Shown here: positions 1,741-49,232 of the stretch, piece by piece
How positions within the stretch are numbered: the first letter of the stretch is position 1
Layout of the letters: each line of letters begins with the position of its first letter
Assembly (NCBI GenBank): GCA_964631205.1
Contig: CAZVWU010000001.1
Coordinates: 28,346-92,345, forward strand
Source of the DNA: an uncultured archaeon
GTDB taxonomy: Archaea > Aenigmatarchaeota > Aenigmatarchaeia > QMZP01 > JACQNV01
Direction: 5' to 3'
Length of the DNA: 64,000 bases
Position numbers and translations under genes: made by a program
The notes under the pieces: generated by a model
The model's database searches: none
The model's input: only the letters and a program-made list of their open reading frames with translations
What the model was told of the DNA's origin: nothing

Positions 1741-3246
1741 TCATGGGTTGGCGTCGAATTCTAGAGTGTACCTTATGCCTTTAGGGACAGCCTTTCTCCC
1801 TGTATCTAGGAGTACGAAATTTTCTCCAACAAGATGGTTTATTTCTGGATCTGTTTTAACATTATTCACTTTTCCTCTCGCAGGAATTATTGGCTCCCTC
1901 TCCAAAGTGCAATCTGACTTAGTTTCCAGCAAGAATTTATAGTGCAAACTCCCATCCCTGTTTTTTCTTCTTATAGTATTTTGAACTAAGTCACGTACAA
2001 CTCCATTATCAGTATCTATCAACGACTCTACAGCAGGATCGCCATAAGCTATAAACCCGTCGCTTAGAAGCAGGTCAATTACTTCTTTTGATTTTATAGG
2101 CTCGCCTCTTGTATAGCCAAGCTTTCCAAGCATATACTGGGTGCTTATCTGGGATTTCCATAAAGATTCCATGAATGGGTTTCCTTCCCTGAATGCATAC
2201 CATTTCCAGCCCTGGCCTGCGTGGTTTGCTAATTCAGTAAGCCCGAAAACAGGCTGTATCCAGCCAAATATTTGGTCAGCTCCGCCGCTCCTTTGAAGAC
2301 CAAGGGCTATAGAATCTTTGCCATGGCCTATCCTTGCAAATTCGCAGTTTGTTGGGGCAGCATAAACCTTTGGGTTGTCAGACTTTAGTTCTTTCAACCT
2401 TTTCCCCTTCTCATCGTAAATATAGACTTTTCCATCAGAAGCATCGAATACAAGTTTCCAGTCTCTGTATCCAGGCTCGTCCTGTGTAGGAAAACCAAGG
2501 TCAACAGCATTGTGCGCTGCATGGCCTTCAAATCCTACAAAATCCGGATTGTTCTTAACAAAATAATCTGCAAATTCAGGCCCTGCTATTTCAACTCCAT
2601 CTTCAGCAAGTTTCTTTCCTAACTCCTTTCTCAGCCTTTTAACTTGCCTTTTGGCTTCTGAAGTTTTACGGTCTTTTGCTGTGCCAAACACAAGCCCCTG
2701 TTTTGCAAGCCTTATCGGCGGTTCCAGGCCTTTTCCAAGAACATTGCCAATTTTTCTTGCCTGTGATTTGGCAATTTTCAGAGCACCGGCAGGATCATAT
2801 CCAGTGATTATTCCGCCAACAGCGGTTGGGTAGCCTTTTTCATCTCTTAGTGCATCGTAAAATTTTACTGCAGATGATCCCCTCAAGATTCTGAAGAAGG
2901 ACTGCAAATTATCTGTTGGGAATGGTTGCGTTTCCAATCTTTCAGGCAGTTCTATATATGCAGCATGTGTTGCGCCTTCCAAATCCGCTTTTACATCTTC
3001 TACTCCATTTTTATATTTCAGAATTCTGGCTCCAGGATATTTCTCAGCCAATGTTCTGGCAACCGTTCCCCAGCCGTTATTTTCGAAAACATCTTTACCA
3101 ATAATAACAGCATGAACTGGCGTATCCTTTTTTGGCTCCCCTGAATAAGCAAAATTTTCAAGACTCCCGGCTGCATAGGTTGCTCCTGTAGCTACAGATA
3201 GCTTCAAAACTTCCCTTCTTGTGAAACCTTCATTTTGCATAGCCAT
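1741..3246 (-). CDS. Tat-signal secreted protein of unknown function
   Basis: 501 aa. The N-terminus has a twin-arginine motif, TRREVLKLSVATGATYAAG. I recognised no catalytic family. A TATA-like ttttatataa sits about 40 nt upstream on the minus strand. Confidence 0.5.
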   Translation of the reverse strand: MAMQNEGFTRREVLKLSVATGATYAAGSLENFAYSGEPKKDTPVHAVIIGKDVFENNGWGTVARTLAEKYPGARILKYKNGVEDVKADLEGATHAAYIELPERLETQPFPTDNLQSFFRILRGSSAVKFYDALRDEKGYPTAVGGIITGYDPAGALKIAKSQARKIGNVLGKGLEPPIRLAKQGLVFGTAKDRKTSEAKRQVKRLRKELGKKLAEDGVEIAGPEFADYFVKNNPDFVGFEGHAAHNAVDLGFPTQDEPGYRDWKLVFDASDGKVYIYDEKGKRLKELKSDNPKVYAAPTNCEFARIGHGKDSIALGLQRSGGADQIFGWIQPVFGLTELANHAGQGWKWYAFREGNPFMESLWKSQISTQYMLGKLGYTRGEPIKSKEVIDLLLSDGFIAYGDPAVESLIDTDNGVVRDLVQNTIRRKNRDGSLHYKFLLETKSDCTLEREPIIPARGKVNNVKTDPEINHLVGENFVLLDTGRKAVPKGIRYTLEFDANP

Positions 3247-13555: not shown

Positions 13556-15106
13556 TTACCCTCCAGATGTTTGGACTGCAGCCTCTGCAGTGGCTTCTGC
13601 CAAAACCTTTTCTTCGGTTTCCAAAACTGGATCAGCTTTGGTTTCCTCTAAGGCCTTTTCAGATCCCCTATTCTTCAAGCTCCTGACCACTTCTTTCAGC
13701 TGCTTTTGCAGTTCATTCAGCTTGTCTTTCAATTCCTTCAGTGATTTGTGCGCGTCCTTTACAAGCTGGTTCCTTTCTTCTCCTGTTTTGAGTGCTGCTT
13801 GCTTGAACTTTTGCTGCACAACTTCAACCCCATTCTTCACCTCATCTATTTGCTTGTTGAAGCTGTCAACAAAGGCTTCTGTTTCTGCTGTATCTCTTTT
13901 CTCCAGAGACATCTTTTCCAGGGCCCTGTTCAACTTCTCTGACAATTTTGCAGCTTTTACCACTATGCCGCCTATTTTGGATGCTGACACAAAGCCTGCA
14001 GAATGCTCAAGGTCAGTTTTCAATCCAGCAAGCTCCTTGGCTGTTTGTTTTGCCAGATCCTGTATAACGGCCTTATCTGTTTCCTCTGTTATTTCCCCCG
14101 CCTTTTGCTTAAGCTGCCTGATCTGTTCTATGTGCGCGTCTATCTTTTGGATTTCTGTTGCAGATTCAGTTTCTGTTATTGAAGCCTCAGCTTCTATTGC
14201 CAGCTTTGATTTTTCCAGCCTAGCTTCCAGGAAACCCAGCGAGTCCATTAAAAATGCCTTTGCAGACATTTTTATTTCAGTTTTTATTTTTTTGCATTCC
14301 TGGCTCTCTTCTTTGCAACCTTCTGATTTTACCTTTGTTTTTCCAAAACTCTCTTTTGAAGCCTGCATTTTAGTTTTTAATGCTTCAGTTTGGAGTTTTT
14401 CTGTCTTTTCTTTGATTGTTTTCAGCTTGTCTTCTGCGACTTCCCTTGCACCTACATCTGTCCGAGATCTTATTTTAAATTTCTTAAATTCCTCTGACCT
14501 GCCTATATCTTCTGCCTTTTTCCTTGCAGAATCAGTTTTCTGCTTCAGCTTCTTTAATTTCTCAAGCTGCTGGTCTGTCAAGCTGTCAACTTTTTTCTGG
14601 ATTTCCTTTATCTCTTTTTCGCATTCATCCCCTTCGTTTAGCTCTTTACATTTTTCCACAGCTATTTCCAGCTTTTCCTTTTCAAAAACTTTCAAATCAG
14701 CTGCATTCTTAATCAAAGCTTTTATCTCTCTCAACCCCTCAAGCCTTGCCTTATTTATTTCCTTTGTGATTTCAGAACGTTCCTGTGGAGTTGCATTCAA
14801 AAGCCTCTGTTTCAATCCTTCAAATAAGGCCCTTCTTTTTTCTATAGCTTCTTTGATTGTTGCAGATTTTTGTGACCTTATCTTATCCAGCTCTATTTTT
14901 ATCTCAGAACTTAGTTTAGTCTCTGTTTTAATTTCAGTTTCCCCACCACCAGTTGTTTTTACTTCTACTTTCGCCTTACCCTCTGCTCCAACTACATCGC
15001 TCTTTATATCTGTTTTGATATCAGCTGTTAATTCCTGTGCCTGTGCAACAGGTAATACAGAGATTAACAGTGCCATTATAACACCCATTAATATTTTTGT
15101 ATCCAT
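13556..15106 (-). CDS. Secreted K/E-rich coiled-coil protein
   Basis: About 517 aa from the internal Met. The signal peptide is MDTKILMGVIMALLISVLPVAQA, followed by several hundred residues of heptad-like K/E-rich sequence. The antisense ORF 13590..15191 is a low-complexity mirror artefact. Confidence 0.5.
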   Translation of the reverse strand: MDTKILMGVIMALLISVLPVAQAQELTADIKTDIKSDVVGAEGKAKVEVKTTGGGETEIKTETKLSSEIKIELDKIRSQKSATIKEAIEKRRALFEGLKQRLLNATPQERSEITKEINKARLEGLREIKALIKNAADLKVFEKEKLEIAVEKCKELNEGDECEKEIKEIQKKVDSLTDQQLEKLKKLKQKTDSARKKAEDIGRSEEFKKFKIRSRTDVGAREVAEDKLKTIKEKTEKLQTEALKTKMQASKESFGKTKVKSEGCKEESQECKKIKTEIKMSAKAFLMDSLGFLEARLEKSKLAIEAEASITETESATEIQKIDAHIEQIRQLKQKAGEITEETDKAVIQDLAKQTAKELAGLKTDLEHSAGFVSASKIGGIVVKAAKLSEKLNRALEKMSLEKRDTAETEAFVDSFNKQIDEVKNGVEVVQQKFKQAALKTGEERNQLVKDAHKSLKELKDKLNELQKQLKEVVRSLKNRGSEKALEETKADPVLETEEKVLAEATAEAAVQTSGG

Positions 15107-15283
15107 ATTAGACCTCCATGCGGATTCTAGCCCGCATTTTCTTGATCTGAAATGGACTTCCATGGTATATAAACACGCTTTCAGATTGTAAAAAATCTAA
15201 AGTTTATAATAACTCCTTAAACTTTAAATGACCCAAAAATAGCCCAGGAAGCTTTATAAAGCCTAAAATCGACTTTCTAGTAT

Positions 15284-16018
15284 ATGAGAACGGTCTTAAC
15301 ATTCTTGATAGTTTTGTATATCATTCCAATATTGGTAAGCGGGGCGGTTATAAGGGGATCTGTATATGACTTGTCTCTGGAAAAAATAAATGGAACTGTT
15401 GTCTATGTTGACAGCTCTCCAAAACAGCAGATAATTTCAAAAGATGGGTCGTATAACTTTACTCTGCAACAGGGAACATATACCATAACTGCCAACCAAC
15501 TAAAAGATGGCAAGCTGGTTTCAAATTCCTCGGAAAAAATAACAGTCAATCAGGAAGGCGAGTTTAATCTTGACATTATCTTGTTGCCTGTTTTTGAGGA
15601 CATAGGGGCTGGAGACATAGGTCTGAGCCCCAAAGATTTTGAACAACAAGATGGAATACCTATTTTTACTATAATTGGTTTTATTTTAGTCGGGATTATA
15701 TTTCTTATAGTGTTTGTAAAGCTAAGGCAGATAAGGAAAGAAAAGCCTAGAGAAGTTATAAGGGAGGTGCCAAAAATTGAAGTGATAAAAGAAGTTGTCA
15801 AAGAAGTAAGGGAGGTAAAAACAGAAAAACTCCCTGAAGACCTTGAAAAAGCCCTTGATATAATCAAAAGGAATTCAGGAAGGACAACCCAGAAAGAGAT
15901 AAGGAAGGAGATGAACCTCTCAGAAGCAAAAATTTCTTTGATGATGGACGACCTCGAATCCCGCGGCCTGATAAAGAAAATCAAGAAAGGCAGGGGAAAT
16001 TTGATTATTTTGAATTGA
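15284..16018 (+). CDS. Membrane-tethered transcriptional regulator (signal/TM, extracellular beta-sandwich, TM, cytoplasmic wHTH)
   Basis: 244 aa. It has an N-terminal signal or TM segment, a carboxypeptidase-regulatory-like beta domain (GSVYDL...TYTITANQ), a TM helix (IFTIIGFILVGIIFLIVFV), and a C-terminal wHTH (TQKEIRKEMNLSEAKISLMMDDLESRGLI). Confidence 0.5.
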   Translation: MRTVLTFLIVLYIIPILVSGAVIRGSVYDLSLEKINGTVVYVDSSPKQQIISKDGSYNFTLQQGTYTITANQLKDGKLVSNSSEKITVNQEGEFNLDIILLPVFEDIGAGDIGLSPKDFEQQDGIPIFTIIGFILVGIIFLIVFVKLRQIRKEKPREVIREVPKIEVIKEVVKEVREVKTEKLPEDLEKALDIIKRNSGRTTQKEIRKEMNLSEAKISLMMDDLESRGLIKKIKKGRGNLIILN

Positions 16019-16922
16019 TGCTCGGGCTTTTTTTCCAAGCAGCGACTTTAGCCTTGAGGTAATCTGGGAGTTCTATTGGAGCGTAAAAAGTATTAATTAT
16101 TCTCATATCAGCTGATATTACAGGATATACTCCTTGTTTAGTTTCTACCTCAGAATCTGCAAGCGATTTGGTAAAAAACATTTCCCTGAACTTTCTTAAT
16201 TTCGACTCGTCTTTAAGTCTGCCTTCTCTCGTAGGGTGTACGAGATCAGAATAATAATACCAATACATCTGCATCGACGATCTTTTTATTTCGTTGCTCA
16301 CAGATCTTTCTTTGGCTGCCTTTTCAATTTGTACTTTAAAAGCATGTAATTCATTTACATCTTTAAGTATTACTGGAATAATAATATCTGGACCATCTAC
16401 AGATAAGAAATCTTCATATAGAAAACCGCTTGCTCCGTAATGCCATGATTTGGCATGCCCTTCTATTTCATGATCAACAACTATATTGAGGAAATCATCC
16501 TCGCACTTCGAATCTGCAAAAGCATGATTGTAAATATCTATAGAATACTTTTTTCTCTTTCCTATATCATCCGCGTAAGCATTTCTTATTTCAGCTCTTA
16601 TTATATCGACTAGGTCAGTTTTAGGAGAAATCTGTCTATAGACTAATGGCTTTCCTCCTGAATAATTCATGCCCTCGACATAAGGCAGCTTATCCAACCC
16701 GAACCTTCTTACAACAGATTTTACATAAGCAGCTCTTTTAGTTTTGTCTTTCTTTGCCTCCTCAAAAGTTGGGTCTTTTTCCTGGAGCAGGTTATACCCT
16801 GTATATCCCAAAACTCCTGCGGCCGCCGCACCTAATCCTGCCTTTAGAAAATTTCGCCTGGTATAGGAATTTTCAGAAGCCTCGATTCGCCTTTTTCTTT
16901 CTTCCCTTCTTTTTTGGCTCAT
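16005..16922 (-). CDS. Tat-signal secreted protein, HExxH-like, paralog 1
   Basis: Tat motif YTRRNFLKAGLGAAAAGVLG. It has an HEIEGH motif. It shares blocks with 18008..18940 (DKLPYVE, YWYYYS/YWFYYS, FREMFF/FREFFF). Confidence 0.5.
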   Translation of the reverse strand: MSQKRREERKRRIEASENSYTRRNFLKAGLGAAAAGVLGYTGYNLLQEKDPTFEEAKKDKTKRAAYVKSVVRRFGLDKLPYVEGMNYSGGKPLVYRQISPKTDLVDIIRAEIRNAYADDIGKRKKYSIDIYNHAFADSKCEDDFLNIVVDHEIEGHAKSWHYGASGFLYEDFLSVDGPDIIIPVILKDVNELHAFKVQIEKAAKERSVSNEIKRSSMQMYWYYYSDLVHPTREGRLKDESKLRKFREMFFTKSLADSEVETKQGVYPVISADMRIINTFYAPIELPDYLKAKVAAWKKSPSINSK

Positions 16923-16971
16923 GTTACTAGAAATAATCCGCTTATTTATAAACCTTATCCAATCTCAGAAA

Positions 16972-18036
16972 TCAAAGGTTAAGCTCCTTCAGCAAAATCT
17001 GGCACTCCTGTTTCGGGTCTGCGGCTTCGATTTTATTTCCAAGCAGCTCGATCTCCCCGGAAAAATTATTTTTCTTCACGCGCCCACCTATAATAAACTC
17101 TTTGCCCAGAACACCAAGGCTGCCATAAAATTTATTTATGTCAGACAAATCCATATATTCAGCTTTCATTCCGTACAATTTCTCTGCAAGATCCCTGAAA
17201 AAAATAACCCTTACATTGGCTGTCCCATCATCCACAACCCCGGAGAAAATAAGGTTTTTCTGTGGCTGCGCAATAAGCCCGTGGGATTTACATGAGCTTG
17301 ATTTATCCAAAGAAGATCCGCACATAGGGCAAACCAGATAAACCGGATTCCTTCTGAAAATATGCACAAGGCAACCCCTGAATTCAGCATACATATTTTC
17401 CTGCAGGTCCTTTATTTCAACTCTGTTTTTTTGCTCTGCAAAATCAGCATAACCATTTTTATCTGCCTCAGGAATCGCCTCAATTTTCTGATAAACTTTC
17501 TCTATAAGGCCTCTTTTATTCAGGCTTATCTCAACATCCCTATAAATGCTGTTTGACTTTTTCGAATAAGCCTGCGAAACCCTCACAACATCACCTTCCT
17601 GCAGGCCTGCAGCTTTTTCAATATCCTCTCCCCACAAAACCAGCATTACGTTTCCAGTCTCATCGCCAAGCAGAATATTTTTGACAGAACCTTTTTTACC
17701 ATTCTTCTCAAAACTTCTCACATCAAAAATTCTCAAAACTTTTGCTGCCAAATCAATAAACCTCAAATCAGAAATAATGTTTTTGATCTTGAATTCCCGC
17801 CTTCCCTCTTTTATGAGATTTACCCCCAGCTCCCTGCCAACAATATAAGCAGCGCCCTCCTTCGAGACAAGGCCTGAAAGTTCCTCCTGTTTTTCAAGAA
17901 CCAATCTTTCTATTTCCTTTGTTTCATTCCCGGATTCCTTGCTGATTTTGGAAAGCAGCTCTTCAAAAGGCATCATATCTAAAATAATTGTTTCTGGATT
18001 TTTAAGCTTATTTTTTCTTATTTCTCCATTGTGCAA
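16972..18036 (-). CDS. rpa: Replication protein A-like ssDNA-binding protein (OB folds plus C4 zinc finger)
   Basis: There are two OB-fold blocks (LLGDETGNVMLVLWGEDI...GDVVRVSQAY and another) and a zinc finger, CPMCGSS...CKSHG. Confidence 0.65.
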   Translation of the reverse strand: MHNGEIRKNKLKNPETIILDMMPFEELLSKISKESGNETKEIERLVLEKQEELSGLVSKEGAAYIVGRELGVNLIKEGRREFKIKNIISDLRFIDLAAKVLRIFDVRSFEKNGKKGSVKNILLGDETGNVMLVLWGEDIEKAAGLQEGDVVRVSQAYSKKSNSIYRDVEISLNKRGLIEKVYQKIEAIPEADKNGYADFAEQKNRVEIKDLQENMYAEFRGCLVHIFRRNPVYLVCPMCGSSLDKSSSCKSHGLIAQPQKNLIFSGVVDDGTANVRVIFFRDLAEKLYGMKAEYMDLSDINKFYGSLGVLGKEFIIGGRVKKNNFSGEIELLGNKIEAADPKQECQILLKELNL

Positions 18037-18940
18037 CTTTTCCCTTCAGATAAATGGGGAGTTCCAGAGGGCCATTGTATGTCATCATCCTGTCATCGGG
18101 CATAATTACTGGCCCCTGATATCCAATTTCTTTATGGGTTATTTCCATGCGCAGGAAAAATGGTGCAAAGAAAAATTCCCTGAACCTTTTTATTGCTTCA
18201 GGGTTTTTCAAAAGATTATCCTCTTCGGATGGACAAATTAAATTAGAATAATAAAACCAATATGCTCTCAATGAACTCAGGAAATGTTCTCTGCTTACAT
18301 TCCTTTTGGGGGCTTCATTGATTTCGTTTCTATAAGCATATAATTCTGTAATAGAGTCGACTAAAATGCTGGCGAATTTTTCTTTATGATCTTTATGTGA
18401 AAAATCGTCTGTATTAAATTCAATATCATGGAAGCCCTCAGACTGCATTTTGGCATGAATAACTTCATGGTCTCCAAGCCCGTTTATAAAATCGTTCTCA
18501 TTCAAATAATTGGGAGCTTCGAATGCAGGGGAATAAACCAGGATTTTGAACTTCCCCCCATTCCCAATCTCTCTACTCCTGCTTTGAGTGGTCATCGCAA
18601 ACTTTGCATTGGGTCCATGTATCTCTTTTGGCGCAGTATAGGAGGCAATTTCTGCATACTCGATGCTTTCAACATAAGGCAGCTTATCGAGCTCAAACCT
18701 TCTTACTATATCGTTCACATACTGAGCCCTTTTCTCAGGCCTGTTTTTGGCGTCTTCGAAAGAAACATAATTTTCCCCAAAGATGCTTTTGGCTGCTTTT
18801 CTTATTCCGCCGAAAAAATATTCTTCTGCAGCTGCGAAAGCACCGGCCGCACCTAAAGCCAAAAATCCTCTTCTGGAAATGTATGGCTGCTTTGCTGCTT
18901 CCTCCAATCTCCTCTTTTCACGCCTTCTTTCCTGCGACAT
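18008..18940 (-). CDS. Tat-signal secreted protein, HExxH motif, paralog 2
   Basis: Tat motif ISRRGFLALGAAGAFAAA. It has a canonical HEVIH zinc-metalloprotease-like motif. It is paralogous to 16005..16922. Confidence 0.5.
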   Translation of the reverse strand: MSQERRREKRRLEEAAKQPYISRRGFLALGAAGAFAAAEEYFFGGIRKAAKSIFGENYVSFEDAKNRPEKRAQYVNDIVRRFELDKLPYVESIEYAEIASYTAPKEIHGPNAKFAMTTQSRSREIGNGGKFKILVYSPAFEAPNYLNENDFINGLGDHEVIHAKMQSEGFHDIEFNTDDFSHKDHKEKFASILVDSITELYAYRNEINEAPKRNVSREHFLSSLRAYWFYYSNLICPSEEDNLLKNPEAIKRFREFFFAPFFLRMEITHKEIGYQGPVIMPDDRMMTYNGPLELPIYLKGKVAQWRNKKK

Positions 18941-18999
18941 GAACTAAAAATAGGACTAAGATTTATAAACATTCTCTAGAAGAAAGTGCAGAAAATCAG

Positions 19000-23646: not shown

Positions 23647-24276
23647 TTACAGAAGCAGCATTATCATCCCAAGCAAAGCCATCCCAAAATCCTCGGCAAG
23701 GGTTATTTTTGTCAATGGGACTTTTAGGAATGTCCCCAAGCAGACGCACTGGAACTTTTCTTTCTTTGCCAGTTTTATTCCAACGCCAAGTCCGCTAAAT
23801 GACATTACAAAAATTTCTGTGATTAGAAGCGGGCGGGATGCAGGAGCCAATATCATCGCTAATCCAAAAAATAGTTCTATGAACGGATAGATATATCCAT
23901 ATGCATAGGCCCTTTTCGCCAGAAGGTCGTAAGTGGAATAGCCTTCAGCAAATCCTTTCAGGTCGATGAGCTTGAGGCCAGAGAATGTAAGGAAGAACCC
24001 TATCATGAAGTAGGATATTGTTTTCTGGGCAGAATAATTGCCAAGCTGGTAATAATCCCTGAATGCCAGAACGCTTGTAGCAAGGAGTATCAATCCTATT
24101 ATCGTCGCCAAAGGCATGTAGCTTTTCCATGTCACTTTTCCAAGGCCCATGTCTTTATTTTGTCTTATGCTGGTTTCCAAAGAATTTACAGGCACGAGCT
24201 TCATCCCGCCGCACTTAGGGCATTTTCCAGGCTTTTTTTGTTTTATCTCAGGATGCATCGGGCATGTGTATTCCAT
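23647..24276 (-). CDS. Membrane protein with an N-terminal heavy-metal-binding domain (YTCPMHPE...CPKCGM) and a DoxX/MauE-like TM domain
   Basis: It has a CPxH-type HMBD motif and 4-5 TM helices. Confidence 0.45.
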   Translation of the reverse strand: MEYTCPMHPEIKQKKPGKCPKCGGMKLVPVNSLETSIRQNKDMGLGKVTWKSYMPLATIIGLILLATSVLAFRDYYQLGNYSAQKTISYFMIGFFLTFSGLKLIDLKGFAEGYSTYDLLAKRAYAYGYIYPFIELFFGLAMILAPASRPLLITEIFVMSFSGLGVGIKLAKKEKFQCVCLGTFLKVPLTKITLAEDFGMALLGMIMLLL

Positions 24277-24284
24277 ATTTTAAA

Positions 24285-25844
24285 TTACCCTTCCCCCATA
24301 AATTTCTTTATCCTTGGCGGTATATCATCCCCATGCTGGTTGACTATTTGCTCGTACATCTGGTGAGCAATCATTGTGGCCAGCAAGATGCCTGTGCCAG
24401 TCCCTATGGCAAAAGTGAAGTCTGCAAAAGCGGCAAGTGCGCCTATCGCCGCGCCCCCCAGAACAGTTAGGTGGGGTATATACCGGTTGAGAACGCCTTC
24501 TATTATCCTTGGATCCCTCCTATGGCCTGCCACATACATTCCAACAGAGTCAATCTGATCGGCCACAGATTTGGAATCCATGCCAGATGTTTGTACCCAG
24601 AAGATCGCGAAAACTACTGAGCCCCCTATAAGGAAAAGTGAATACGTGACCATCCTTGCAAGATCATCTATGGTTATTGCAGTTAAGGATGTCACCCCGG
24701 AGGAAACAGAGAGCCCATACCAGACTAGGATGCCAAGAACAGCGAATGCTCCAATGTATTTCAAACCCTGCTTTTTTGAAAAATGAAGGAATAATGCCCC
24801 GATTATTGCAAAGAGGCCTATGAAAACCATAAGGCTGGAAAGTGGAATTGATTGTGGAGGGAAAAGGTAGTAAATTATCCCGCCTGTGGGGTTCCCCTGG
24901 GTATCAAACGTCCCCAGTATGGAAGAGCCGCCCCTTTGGCCAAGCATCCTTGCAACAAGCTGGACGTTCGCCAGTAGAGCCGAGACTAATATCACAGGCA
25001 TGTTTGATGTGTAGAAAAATTTCAGCGGCCATCTCCTTCCAAAACCGCTAAGCGCGCCAAAAGCAAGAGGCACCTCGACCCTGATAAGCTGGGAATATAT
25101 TGCTATTACTATAACAAGCAACGTAGCTATCACCGGCAGGAACCCCTGCAATAAAGCCTCCACAGGGCTTGAGCCAAGGGCTAATATTCCGTAAGGCAGG
25201 CGCCCTGCTGGCGGGTTTGCCGCATCTGGAAGGCAGGTATCTATCTGGCCTGGAGTACAGCCAATTGTAAGCGGATTGAAAATGCCTATAATCATCCCCT
25301 TTGCAACGCCCGCTAGTATGAAAAGCCCTACTCCAGACCCAAAGCCCCATTTTGTGACAACCTCATCCATGAATAAAATAATTATCCCGCCTAAAGCGAG
25401 CTGCATCATTACTAAAGGAGCCTGGCCGGGAATACTGGGTACAGCCCCGAATCCGACAAATATGTAAGCCTCCAAAAATGAGAATGCTATTGCCAGTAAT
25501 TTTTGTGTCCCTTGGAATCGCTTTTTCCCTGTCTCTGATTTCAGGTCCCATGGAATTATTTTAGATCCTACCAAAAGCTGCAAGATTATTGATGCCGTAA
25601 CTATAGGACCTATACCTAATGTAACCAAACTCCCAAAACTGGAGCCGAGGACTATTTCCAAAAACTGCAGCCTTGGAACATTTGCCTTGTCAACCCCATA
25701 AACAACCACCTGTGTCATGAGCAGGTAGATGAACAGTATAAGTGATGTCCATTTCAGCTTTTCTGAGAACGAAAGTTTCTTGATAGGGCTAGCAACTCCT
25801 GGCAGCTTTTTTAAAATCCTGTCGTATTTTTCTGCAAATGCCAT
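24285..25844 (-). CDS. secY: Protein translocase subunit SecY
   Basis: 519 aa, 10 TM. It is the canonical gene downstream of L15. Confidence 0.9.
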   Translation of the reverse strand: MAFAEKYDRILKKLPGVASPIKKLSFSEKLKWTSLILFIYLLMTQVVVYGVDKANVPRLQFLEIVLGSSFGSLVTLGIGPIVTASIILQLLVGSKIIPWDLKSETGKKRFQGTQKLLAIAFSFLEAYIFVGFGAVPSIPGQAPLVMMQLALGGIIILFMDEVVTKWGFGSGVGLFILAGVAKGMIIGIFNPLTIGCTPGQIDTCLPDAANPPAGRLPYGILALGSSPVEALLQGFLPVIATLLVIVIAIYSQLIRVEVPLAFGALSGFGRRWPLKFFYTSNMPVILVSALLANVQLVARMLGQRGGSSILGTFDTQGNPTGGIIYYLFPPQSIPLSSLMVFIGLFAIIGALFLHFSKKQGLKYIGAFAVLGILVWYGLSVSSGVTSLTAITIDDLARMVTYSLFLIGGSVVFAIFWVQTSGMDSKSVADQIDSVGMYVAGHRRDPRIIEGVLNRYIPHLTVLGGAAIGALAAFADFTFAIGTGTGILLATMIAHQMYEQIVNQHGDDIPPRIKKFMGEG

Positions 25845-27771: not shown

Positions 27772-28580
27772 ATGTCCCCTTTAACTTTACTCAAATTTTT
27801 TAGCGCATTGAAAACAGCAAATGCAAGGTTGATTCTTGATGCTGTCTGGCCTTCTGAGTTTACCCATACGTCTGTTATGCCTGCGAGCTTAAGGATTTTT
27901 TTGGTCTCTTCGCTTGCAACTATCCCTATCCCTTTTGGCCCTGGATTTAAGGTCACTGTAACAGAACCGTGCTTTGCTGAAACTTTGAAAGGTATTGAGT
28001 GCGTTGTCCCGCAAAAGCATTCCCAGCTTCCACAACCCCTTTTGACTTTTATCACATTCAATTTTGCCTGGTTGACAGACTTCTCTATTGCCTGCCTATG
28101 CTCTTTTGAGGAGGCTTTCCCTATCCCCACAACACCATCCTGGTTACCTATAACAACAAGGGAAGATGAGTTATACCTTCTTCCAGACTTATGCATCCTT
28201 GCAGTTATTCTTGTCGCAGTCCTTTTTATTCCGCCGCCTTTTCCCGGAGTCCCGCCGATGTAAATTATTTCCTGCTTGACTGAAGGTATAAGATAATCTA
28301 TTATTTCCGGCTCGAGGATTAGACGCCCGCTGTCCAGAACCTGCATTATATCAGTATATTTTCCAGCAACTATGTCCTTGCCTAATTGCGTTTTTGGTAT
28401 CCACGTGGTTTCCTTGCCTTTTTCTGATTTTATAATGCCTTTTACACCTTCATCCTTCTTAATCTCCTCCACAGCTGCCGGTATTTCTGCTGCAACCTCC
28501 TCAACCACGTCAGCTGGACGCTGACCGTCGTCCCTTTCCTCATTTTCGAGTTTTTCGTCTGCCATAAAATATGATCGCAA
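27768..28580 (-). CDS. rps5: Ribosomal protein S5 (uS5)
   Basis: The C-terminal domain (KRGCGSWECFCG...GPKGIGIVA) is typical. The N-terminus has an acidic extension. Confidence 0.85.
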   Translation of the reverse strand: MRSYFMADEKLENEERDDGQRPADVVEEVAAEIPAAVEEIKKDEGVKGIIKSEKGKETTWIPKTQLGKDIVAGKYTDIMQVLDSGRLILEPEIIDYLIPSVKQEIIYIGGTPGKGGGIKRTATRITARMHKSGRRYNSSSLVVIGNQDGVVGIGKASSKEHRQAIEKSVNQAKLNVIKVKRGCGSWECFCGTTHSIPFKVSAKHGSVTVTLNPGPKGIGIVASEETKKILKLAGITDVWVNSEGQTASRINLAFAVFNALKNLSKVKGDI

Positions 28581-39074: not shown

Positions 39075-39179
39075 TTTTTAGTGGCGGGTAGTTTAGATTT
39101 ATTGATGATGCATCAAAGTTTGTTTATAAATACTGATACACTATATATACTAAAATATTTGAAAGGGGAGTGAAAACTA

Positions 39180-47313: not shown

Positions 47314-49182
47314 TTAAGATTCTTCTTCCCTATCCCCGTCTTCTTCCCCTAAATCCTCCTCTTCAAATTCTTCATTCCCAAATATGTCCTCCTCCTTTTC
47401 CGGCTCTTTTTTCTTTTTAATTTTGAGGAAATAGAATGCAGCCCCGCCTGCAATAACGAGAATAATTAAAAATATTGTCAGGATGCCAGGCCCGCCGCCT
47501 TCATCAGTTTTGGATTTTTCCGAGGTTGTTTCTTGATCATCAATTAACGTCACTCCATTCCCCGACTCTGGGCTTGTTTCAACAACTTGCGCACATCCCC
47601 TGCCCTCCTTATACTTGCAGCGAGCAGTATTGTTGCATGCCCTTGTCTGGAACTCATCGGAAGCGCAGTTTTCAGGCCTCCATTGACCGCAGTCAGCAGA
47701 CTCATCACATGTGATAGCGGAGGAGCTGACCCTGAATGACTGGTTCTTGGACGCAAATGCTGTTATCCCATTATATTGGGCCTCGCAATTCCATTTGTAA
47801 TCTCCGTCAGCAACATACTCTTCCTTAAAATTCACCCTATAAGGAGATTTGGAGCCTTTCACAGAAATAGAGGCCGTGGGCTTCCATTCGCCTGATGTAT
47901 CAGTATAAAGGCTTAGGATACCAGGTTTTTTGCCTGCTGCTTCGCAGACGAAATTCACGTATTTCGTTTTAACAGTTGCAGCAGGCTCCAATAAAACAAC
48001 GTTAAAAAATTCAAAGATTATTTCAGCTTCCCTTGTCTGCTGCTGTTGCGGGTATTGCACATGGCTGCAGGAAACAGTGTATGAAACTTTTGCCGGTTCT
48101 TCGAATTTTCTTGAATATTCATATCCAATATCCTGCACAAATGCCATAGGGTGGAAAGACTGGCTGTCGCTGAAGGAAATTTTGCATGTCCCATCGTTAA
48201 TAAGCTTTAAAAGGCCTGTAGAATTCTGGGAATATGCAGCAAAAAATTTGACAGTCTTGTTGTCAGCAGTTTCAGGCGCATGCCAAATCTCTATGAAATT
48301 AGAGGTTTGGGATTGCTGGGTTGGGGTAGGAGTTGGTGAAGCTGATGTTGTGGGTGATGGGGATCCAGAAGCTGAAGGGCTGGGTGTAGCAGTCTGGGTT
48401 GGTGTAGGAGTTGTTGGTGGAGCAGTAGGTATCAATGAATTTATATCAGCAGCAGAAAGCGCAGTATTGTAAAACCTTACATCATCTATTATTCCCCTAA
48501 ATGCAGTTGATGATGGGTTTTCAGCGCCTATATAGAGATCCCCTGTGTTTGTAGTGGTTGTCCCAGGAGGGTAACATGTATTTTTCAATTGGCCATTAAC
48601 ATAAATTTGAACTGTTGGACCATCATAGGTTACTGCTGCATGGTACCATGTATTTGGAGAAATTGTAACCCCAGAATCACAAGTGACTCCATTAGCCGTG
48701 CTTATGCTATACTTTAAAGTGCTTTGGACATACAGAGATAATTGCACAGGATTTCCTTGCGCATCTAACACATTGTCTCTTTTACTCATTAATGTTTGCG
48801 ATCCAGTAGAAGTCTGTTTAAACCATATACCCATTGTGAAGCTGTTGAGGTTGTTTATCCTTGCTGAATTTTGGACTTTTATATGATAGAATTTAGTTGA
48901 AAGATCCAACCCGCCCCGAATCCTTCCATTGGCAGTCCATGGGGCATCTGTCACTGGATTTCCGGCATCATTGTTCACTTTGCCTATATCATCACCGCCT
49001 GCTGAATCAGATGCTGTTGGCAAGGTTGTTTCATCAAGGGTCCAGTGGGCTACAAGGGATTGTGCGACCTGGTTGCCAGACAATTGCAAATTCGCAAAAT
49101 TAGCCACTGCAACAACAGCGACAACCACTGCGAGAATCCCTGCAGCTACACCTGCCTGACCTTTCAGCCCTTTTTTAAGCAT
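47314..49182 (-). CDS. Cell-surface protein with a pilin-like class III signal peptide, LamG/ConA-like domain, Pro/Thr-rich linker, Cys-rich domains, C-terminal TM and an acidic tail
   Basis: N-terminus MLKKGLKG-QAGVAAGILAVVVAVVAV. LamG motifs (GIWFKQ..., GIIDDVRFYNTALSAADINSL). PT-rich linker. C-terminal TM ILTIFLIILVIAGGAAFYFL followed by an E/D tail. Confidence 0.55.
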   Translation of the reverse strand: MLKKGLKGQAGVAAGILAVVVAVVAVANFANLQLSGNQVAQSLVAHWTLDETTLPTASDSAGGDDIGKVNNDAGNPVTDAPWTANGRIRGGLDLSTKFYHIKVQNSARINNLNSFTMGIWFKQTSTGSQTLMSKRDNVLDAQGNPVQLSLYVQSTLKYSISTANGVTCDSGVTISPNTWYHAAVTYDGPTVQIYVNGQLKNTCYPPGTTTTNTGDLYIGAENPSSTAFRGIIDDVRFYNTALSAADINSLIPTAPPTTPTPTQTATPSPSASGSPSPTTSASPTPTPTQQSQTSNFIEIWHAPETADNKTVKFFAAYSQNSTGLLKLINDGTCKISFSDSQSFHPMAFVQDIGYEYSRKFEEPAKVSYTVSCSHVQYPQQQQTREAEIIFEFFNVVLLEPAATVKTKYVNFVCEAAGKKPGILSLYTDTSGEWKPTASISVKGSKSPYRVNFKEEYVADGDYKWNCEAQYNGITAFASKNQSFRVSSSAITCDESADCGQWRPENCASDEFQTRACNNTARCKYKEGRGCAQVVETSPESGNGVTLIDDQETTSEKSKTDEGGGPGILTIFLIILVIAGGAAFYFLKIKKKKEPEKEEDIFGNEEFEEEDLGEEDGDREEES

Positions 49183-49200
49183 TAATAGTATTAGATTGAC

Positions 49201-49232
49201 TTCAATAAAAAACAAAAAGGGGGTTTATCCCC
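49201..49232 (-). terminator. GC hairpin plus T-tract downstream of ftsZ
   Basis: The minus strand reads GGGGGATAAACCCCC followed by TTTTTGTTTTTTATT. Confidence 0.45.

Follow-up and report, generated by a model that had tools for sequence, protein, structure and literature searches.

What kind of protein is encoded by two related genes on one strand of an uncultured archaeon's DNA, when each opens with a twin-arginine (RR) motif, each carries an HExxH-like motif and the pair encloses a gene for an RPA-like protein? The stretch analysed here (64,000 nucleotides of contig CAZVWU010000001.1, from position 28,346 to position 92,345; the window) had been read before in a first-pass annotation made from the letters alone, which singled out the two genes as encoding putative secreted metallopeptidases of a family that it did not recognise. 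In our reading their products, called A and B below, are probably diverged copies within a so far uncurated family of small zincin-like, gluzincin-type metallohydrolases, and the RR signal would serve their export.

16005..16922, reverse strand: paralogue A, 305 amino acids; a basic tail at the N-terminus, then an RR signal and a zincin-like domain containing HExxGH
18008..18940, reverse strand: paralogue B, 310 amino acids; basic tail, SRRGFLA, short hydrophobic region (h-region) ending AAA-EE, zincin-like domain with HEVIH

The coordinates, strand and quoted strings given for A and B in the first-pass annotation proved correct, and so did the paralogy that it had read from several shared blocks, since BLASTP aligned the two proteins over 281 residues with 35% identity (E 4e-37), a similarity far above chance that confirms them, at the level of sequence, as true paralogues. 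A protein identical to A is already on record (P0001), encoded on an NCBI contig of 192,737 bp, and the family profile matched A at E 4.5e-63 and B at E 4.3e-67. The family had been called unfamiliar and is so in the curated collections as well: the domain of A and B matched nothing in Pfam-A or NCBIfam, where the only matches were those of twin-arginine translocation (Tat) signal models to A.

An exhaustive profile search of 1.84 billion proteins recovered 289 cluster representatives (clusters at 50% identity) at E ≤ 1e-3, with 77 of them at ≤ 1e-10 and 18 at ≤ 1e-30; conservation figures are given for 146 representatives throughout. A word-indexed search of 5.8 billion proteins returned only four other proteins, all of them unnamed, and with a large alignment only 7, likewise unnamed, while the 20 representatives looked at more closely stood alone or in tiny clusters, all unnamed. 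When the 146 representatives were scanned singly against Pfam, no family was found and a single weak SprT-like match (E 9.5e-4) was recorded. Sequence-profile searches of the PDB with 6- and 146-sequence alignments retrieved no chain, and neither PHROGs nor PADLOC held a match for the family, so that a phage or defence-system origin finds no support there. Members occur in archaeal contigs, and at least one further contig with a family gene is clearly bacterial (UvrC, SecG, SBP_bac_5), and a species-representative genome collection searched with the 6-sequence alignment yielded a single match, on a Candidatus Nanoarchaeia archaeon contig. Two tandem family copies, both with HEIEGH, were found on Candidatus Nanoarchaeia contig L007 (1069-2037 and 2254-2946), and paralogue pairs therefore recur in that lineage. 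The A/B family is rare and uncatalogued; it is new as a family, but the enzyme class is well known and the system is of no new kind.

The case for a metalloenzyme is carried by the presumed metal site, which lies in the two copies as follows.

16455..16472, reverse strand: HEIEGH of A (residues 151-156; H151, E152, H156), which has one extra residue and presumably serves metal binding and catalysis
16338..16352, reverse strand: ELHAF of A, on the long helix that follows; its E191 is presumed to be the third metal ligand
18455..18469, reverse strand: HEVIH of B (residues 158-162), aligned with HEIEGH of A
18332..18346, reverse strand: ELYAY of B, with the Glu equivalent to E191 of A

The canonical HEVIH that the first-pass annotation had seen in one protein and the HEIEGH that it had seen in the other were both found, and in the alignment of the 146 representatives this HExxH-like motif emerged as a real, family-wide conserved site with a Glu downstream. 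E152 is the only invariant column, H151, H156, E191, A56, R63, Y87 and F135 are each at least 90% conserved, and position 191, which follows H156 by 35 residues, is Glu in 144 of the 146. As far as the alignment tells, the signature is HExxH plus a downstream Glu, that of a gluzincin-type zincin of the MEROPS clan MA-like kind. The motif is five residues long (HExxH) in 119 of the 146 representatives and six residues long (HExxGH, mostly HE[IV][ED]GH) in 27. When the 31 closest sequences were placed in a neighbour-joining tree, B with its HEVIH fell into a clade otherwise made up of HExxGH sequences (among them A, P0002 and P0012), and B thus seems to have gone back to the canonical spacing by loss of one residue. 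HExxGH is otherwise a hallmark of dipeptidyl peptidase III (DPP III, M49).

The first-pass annotation had proposed structure prediction as a check on a zincin fold, and the AlphaFold2 model of A (residues 48-305, from a 141-sequence alignment; predicted local distance difference test, pLDDT, 92; predicted template-modelling score, pTM, 0.89) looks zincin-like. Two N-terminal helices are followed in the model by a beta-sheet (strands 35-40, 48-50, 63-66 and 79-83), by a long helix (94-115) that bears HEIEGH and by a second long helix (136-157) that bears E191, after which the chain continues through more helices and two small hairpins and ends in a C-terminal helix. In the list of structures compared with the model, the top values belonged to 3cmn (7.1), BepA (6.6) and Spartan (6.2), followed by ArdC and TTHA0227 (6.0 each), the HExxH domain of ChlH (5.9), and an M48 peptidase and DPP III (5.5 each); M32, MATCAP, projannalysin, YbeY, BlaR1, selecase, botulinum light chains, Wss1, ERAP1 and proabylysin stood lower, and the majority of the matches were peptidases. 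Foldseek retrieved nothing from the PDB at E < 2. We conclude that the A/B domain, as modelled, is probably zincin-like and without a close solved relative. The family enzymes, of about 200-250 amino acids, would most likely be zinc endopeptidases.

Whether and by which route these enzymes would leave the cell has to be read from the N-termini, where A carries TRRNFLKAGLGAAAAG (residues 21-36) and B carries SRRGFLALGAAGAFAAA (residues 22-38). A third, unrelated gene of the window bears on the same question and is listed with them.

16842..16862, reverse strand: TRRNFLK, twin-arginine consensus of A (residues 21-27)
16794..16841, reverse strand: AGLGAAAAGVLGYTGY, Gly/Ala-rich h-region of A (residues 28-43)
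18857..18877, reverse strand: SRRGFLA of B (residues 22-28)
1741..3246, reverse strand: third RR-bearing protein, 501 amino acids, starting MAMQNEGFTRREVLK, unrelated to A and B
3202-3222, reverse strand: TRREVLK of the third protein
2512-2529, reverse strand: EGHAAH of the third protein, with His242
2338-2352, reverse strand: TNCEF of the third protein, with Cys301

Textbook Tat motifs had been claimed for A and B, and the RR strings are present in both, whereas the curated Tat models were passed by A only (Pfam PF10518, TAT_signal, 26.2 bits with a cut-off of 22.7; TIGR01409, 17.7 with a cut-off of 16.7). Both N-termini look like export signals and not like transmembrane (TM) anchors, their short Gly/Ala-rich stretches lying below the Kyte-Doolittle TM threshold of 1.6: the best 19-residue mean was 1.03 in A and 1.15 in B, in comparison with 1.95 in the RR-less relative P0003, and the scan at 1.6 missed the h-regions of A and B yet picked up SecY and other membrane proteins. 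The hydrophobic stretch of B, between RR and EE, measures about 14 residues and ends in FAAA before EE, where the junction between AAA and EE is a plausible, sequence-based cleavage site; by inspection, A has no clear small-x-small site after its h-region.

The family at large gives these signals a background against which to be judged. A hydrophobic N-terminal segment was found in 110 of the 146 representatives, and when 107 signal-bearing sequences were tested more strictly, 30 had xRRx followed by two hydrophobic residues at the boundary between the n-region and the h-region (n/h boundary), many of them reading S/T/N-RR-x-F-L/I. The h-regions of these 30 were less hydrophobic than those of the 53 members without RR at that boundary (1.74 and 1.90; one-sided Mann-Whitney p = 0.012), and four family members combine RR with a lipobox-like LFGAC. 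An RR at the n/h boundary together with a weaker h-region is the pattern that would be expected of real Tat signals.

The third protein had likewise been described as unrelated to A and B and as bearing the Tat motif TRREVLK; it is unrelated and the motif is there, but no Tat hidden Markov model matched it. It has 38 distant homologues, mostly of 450-500 amino acids and in the majority with classical Sec signals. H242 and C301 are invariant in its family (34 sequences), of which two members, and not the window protein itself, weakly matched PF01364 (Peptidase_C25). From these features it is best read as a candidate clan-CD/C25-like cysteine peptidase whose signal has here turned RR-type. Some of its homologues are fused to transglutaminase or HEAT-repeat domains.

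The strongest alternative keeps the enzyme and gives up Tat: the N-terminus would be a signal peptide or anchor inserted by Sec/YidC, and its arginines would simply be part of a positive-inside basic tail. Several observations weigh against the Tat route and for this alternative. Neither B nor the third protein had a Pfam or NCBIfam Tat-model match at E ≤ 1. No TatA- or TatC-like gene is present among the open reading frames (ORFs) of the 64-kb window, as had been stated before, and the only multi-TM ORFs there encode a GT87 protein, a PMT protein, SecY, a protein with a heavy-metal-binding domain (HMBD) and MauE, and an EMC3/YidC-like protein, so that a Sec channel and a possible insertase are at hand. 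The closest RR-less relatives (P0003, P0004/P0009, P0005, P0013 and P0014) carry KRK or KKK with more hydrophobic segments; very basic N-terminal tails, long and rich in Lys and Arg, are common in the family and make RR dipeptides likelier by chance; and in the literature searched no report of Tat in Nanoarchaeia-type DPANN was found, only nanohaloarchaeal and general papers. Weighing more broadly against obligatory export, 36 of the 146 representatives have no N-terminal hydrophobic segment, which implies that the domain can function in the cytoplasm as well. Against insertion by Sec/YidC, on the other hand, stand the full S/T-R-R-x-F-L-K consensus of A and its passing of two curated models, the position of RR exactly at the n/h boundary in the 30 representatives alongside their lower h-region hydrophobicity, the stretch of B, which is short even for a Sec signal, and the third protein, unrelated and exported, which has swapped the Sec signal of its family for TRREVLK. 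We regard Sec/YidC insertion as possible yet on the doubtful side. Export or a surface location of A and B is well supported by their sequences, and Tat is a plausible route.

A second alternative accepts the HExxH scaffold and doubts the chemistry, the domain acting on something other than peptide bonds, for example as a different metal-dependent hydrolase or an oxygenase, or serving without catalysis as a binding or sensor protein. The conserved N-terminal FEEAK..R..Y module (A56, R63), for which no counterpart was verified in the listed peptidases, could be taken in its favour. It is improbable all the same, because the matches of the model are mostly to peptidases, because an H-E-H-E set whose motif Glu never varies is classical for peptidases, and because an outside location with lipoprotein or Tat signals is typical of secreted hydrolases.

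If A and B are exported RR-bearing zincins, as we favour, their working can be sketched. The sketch starts from what was observed, namely the paralogy, the conserved site, the zincin-like fold of the model and the export-type N-termini found across the family; that metal is bound, that peptides are cleaved, that the domain lies outside the cell, that Tat takes it there and what its substrate is, we infer. The strongly basic tail of about 20 residues would stay in the cytoplasm while the twin-arginine motif and the short Gly/Ala-rich segment carry the folded, perhaps metal-loaded, domain across the membrane. The catalytic domain would begin some 5-20 residues past the hydrophobic segment, and with so short a spacer the enzyme should act at the membrane's outer face or very near it. 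A would more likely be tethered through its uncleaved signal, and B may be released after cleavage between AAA and EE. The metal would be held by both His of HExx(G)H and by the Glu 35-40 residues downstream, with the motif Glu activating water, and membrane-proximal surface or secreted proteins or peptides may be guessed as substrates. A role in host interaction or at the cell wall, which the first-pass annotation had raised, is speculation. A bolder version, which we consider unlikely, has this Nanoarchaeia-type (DPANN) archaeon keep Tat mainly for pre-folded hydrolases (the two zincins and the C25-like cysteine peptidase) as accessory, fast-evolving surface factors that process envelope proteins of the host or its own; on this view the family's repeated changes between HExxH and HExxGH would point to a metal site or specificity retuned between the paralogues.

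The genes around A and B offer a further context, beginning with the one between them and the sequences upstream of each.

16972..17976, reverse strand (public gene call, 334 amino acids; alternative upper coordinate 18036): RPA-like OB-fold gene between A and B, recognised by Pfam
16944..16953, reverse strand: TATA-like box GTTTATAAAT, 31 nucleotides 5' of the ATG of A
18961..18970, reverse strand: TATA-like box GTTTATAAAT, an identical copy, 30 nucleotides 5' of the ATG of B

That the pair flanks an RPA-like gene on the same strand agrees with the earlier reading: the middle gene is so called because of its matches to the OB-fold family tRNA_anti-codon (E 3.5e-9) and to Rep_fac-A_C (E 5e-5, below the Pfam cut-off). 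B, the RPA-like gene and A are co-directional and tightly packed, with gaps of 31 and 49 nucleotides, and RadA lies 3.3 kb from the cluster. The genes of the window are archaeal in type (aIF5A, S26e, RadA and SecY) and its G+C content is 40%. The decamer GTTTATAAAT has only 3 exact copies in the window, the third at 39122-39131 on the forward strand, and its presence before each of the paralogues suggests separate archaeal promoters and leaderless transcripts. A and B are probably transcribed independently, and the RPA-like gene is a neighbour, outside the A/B system.

The contexts of relatives on other contigs are as follows.

P0003: between an RPA-like gene and RadA
P0023: directly adjoining RadA
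P0002: DEAD helicase
P0005: primase
P0013: primase
P0022: integrase (L012 7050-8288) and M16 peptidases
Toxin-antitoxin loci: L002 7260-7926; L005 9005-9623; L013 4840-5437; L010 2136-3010; also on the P0003 and P0023 contigs

RPA and RadA were absent from 4 of the 7 foreign contexts examined. The idea that the pair shares an operon or works together with RPA and RadA was on that account rejected as the principal explanation, and the adjacency amounts to lineage-limited synteny and not to a conserved functional link. Toxin-antitoxin genes (MazE/PIN, PIN/VapB, ParE and AbiEii) flank the family gene in 6 of 8 foreign contexts, which, with the tandem copies, fits an accessory, duplicating gene in flexible genome regions. 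It is in this light very improbable that A and B are cytoplasmic or membrane-associated DNA-protein-crosslink or single-stranded-DNA proteases of the SprT/Wss1/ArdC type, partners of RPA and RadA: the close co-directional packing and the nearby RadA, the surroundings of P0003 and P0023, the SprT-like match of 1 of the 146 members and the 36 members without a signal speak for such a role, but A and B have export-type N-termini, a promoter-like box each and no Pfam SprT-like match, no RPA or RadA lies near P0002, P0005, P0013 or P0022, the domains are without consistent positive charge, and as third ligand the family has Glu where SprT/Wss1 proteases have His.

Other genes of the window deserve mention in their own right. 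On the forward strand, 15284-16018 is convergent with gene A, the 3' ends overlapping by 14 nucleotides. Its product combines a signal peptide and a CarboxypepD_reg-like domain with a TM helix and, at the C-terminus, the winged-helix domain DUF7343 (TrmB/MarR-like), an architecture that suggests a transcription regulator tethered to the membrane. On the P0023 contig, too, a TrmB-family gene of comparable size is found near the family gene. An ImmA/IrrE-like pairing with an adjacent winged helix-turn-helix protein was considered and was without profile support. The reverse-strand gene at 13556-15163 encodes a Lys/Glu-rich protein of 535 amino acids that has a Sec-type signal and matches no family; it is probably a coiled-coil protein, secreted or at the surface. 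The long ORF antisense to it, at 13590-15191 on the forward strand, is probably artefactual and due to the composition of this protein. The reverse-strand gene at 23647-24276, directly downstream of SecY (24285-25844), encodes an HMBD fused to a MauE-like four-TM domain. A candidate surface adhesin of 633 amino acids is encoded at 47314-49215 on the reverse strand; it has a hydrophobic segment at the N-terminus, a Laminin_G_3/ConA-like lectin domain and, at the C-terminus, a TM (CD1107-like) segment.

If the prediction holds, a zincin family that is absent from Pfam and structurally divergent, with about 289 clusters in small-genome archaea and some bacteria, would be added to those described, and its candidate surface proteases would join the very short list of proteins that may let DPANN-type archaea act on their surroundings or hosts. 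A, B and the third protein would, if the reading is true, be three candidate Tat substrates with which to ask whether Tat operates in the lineage, and the natural HExxH/HExxGH pair within one genome is a system for studying how the metal site of a zincin tolerates a one-residue expansion. Nothing in the finding overturns current understanding or would greatly surprise specialists; its neat features are the toggle between HExxH and HExxGH in paralogues, the recurring RR signals and the lack of a close solved structure.

Among known systems, the closest include the small gluzincins of M48 and M56 and the minigluzincins (BepA, HtpX-like M48 proteins, BlaR1, projannalysin, proabylysin and selecase). 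The A/B family has no sequence-profile match to Peptidase_M48, to M56 or to any PDB chain, and it differs from the M48 and M56 enzymes in having its own N-terminal FEEAK..R..Y helices and C-terminal ELPDYLK..W module and, where those have polytopic anchors, a single N-terminal signal. Also among the closest are zincin-like proteins of unknown function, namely the 3cmn-type 'putative hydrolase' of Chloroflexus aurantiacus, TTHA0227 and Acel_2062. DPP III (M49) is a large, two-lobed cytosolic enzyme with EExR(K)AE(D) as its second motif, whereas the A/B family has EL[YH]A[YF] (ELHAF in A) in a domain of about 250 amino acids; because HExxGH arose inside an HExxH family and the second motif and architecture of M49 are absent, the likeness to DPP III is convergent. 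In its signals the family resembles the Tat hydrolases and lipoproteins of haloarchaea and bacteria, with which it shares S/T-RR-x-F-L-K, a weak h-region and, in some members, a lipobox; it differs from them in coming here from an organism other than a haloarchaeon and in its n-region, which is unusually long and carries much charge, and the Tat membership of A and B is putative. The third protein, itself without a Pfam match and from a family whose profile finds no PDB chain, belongs to a family whose invariant His (TSGHA-like) and invariant Cys (GNC) recall the gingipain-type clan-CD Peptidase_C25 enzymes.

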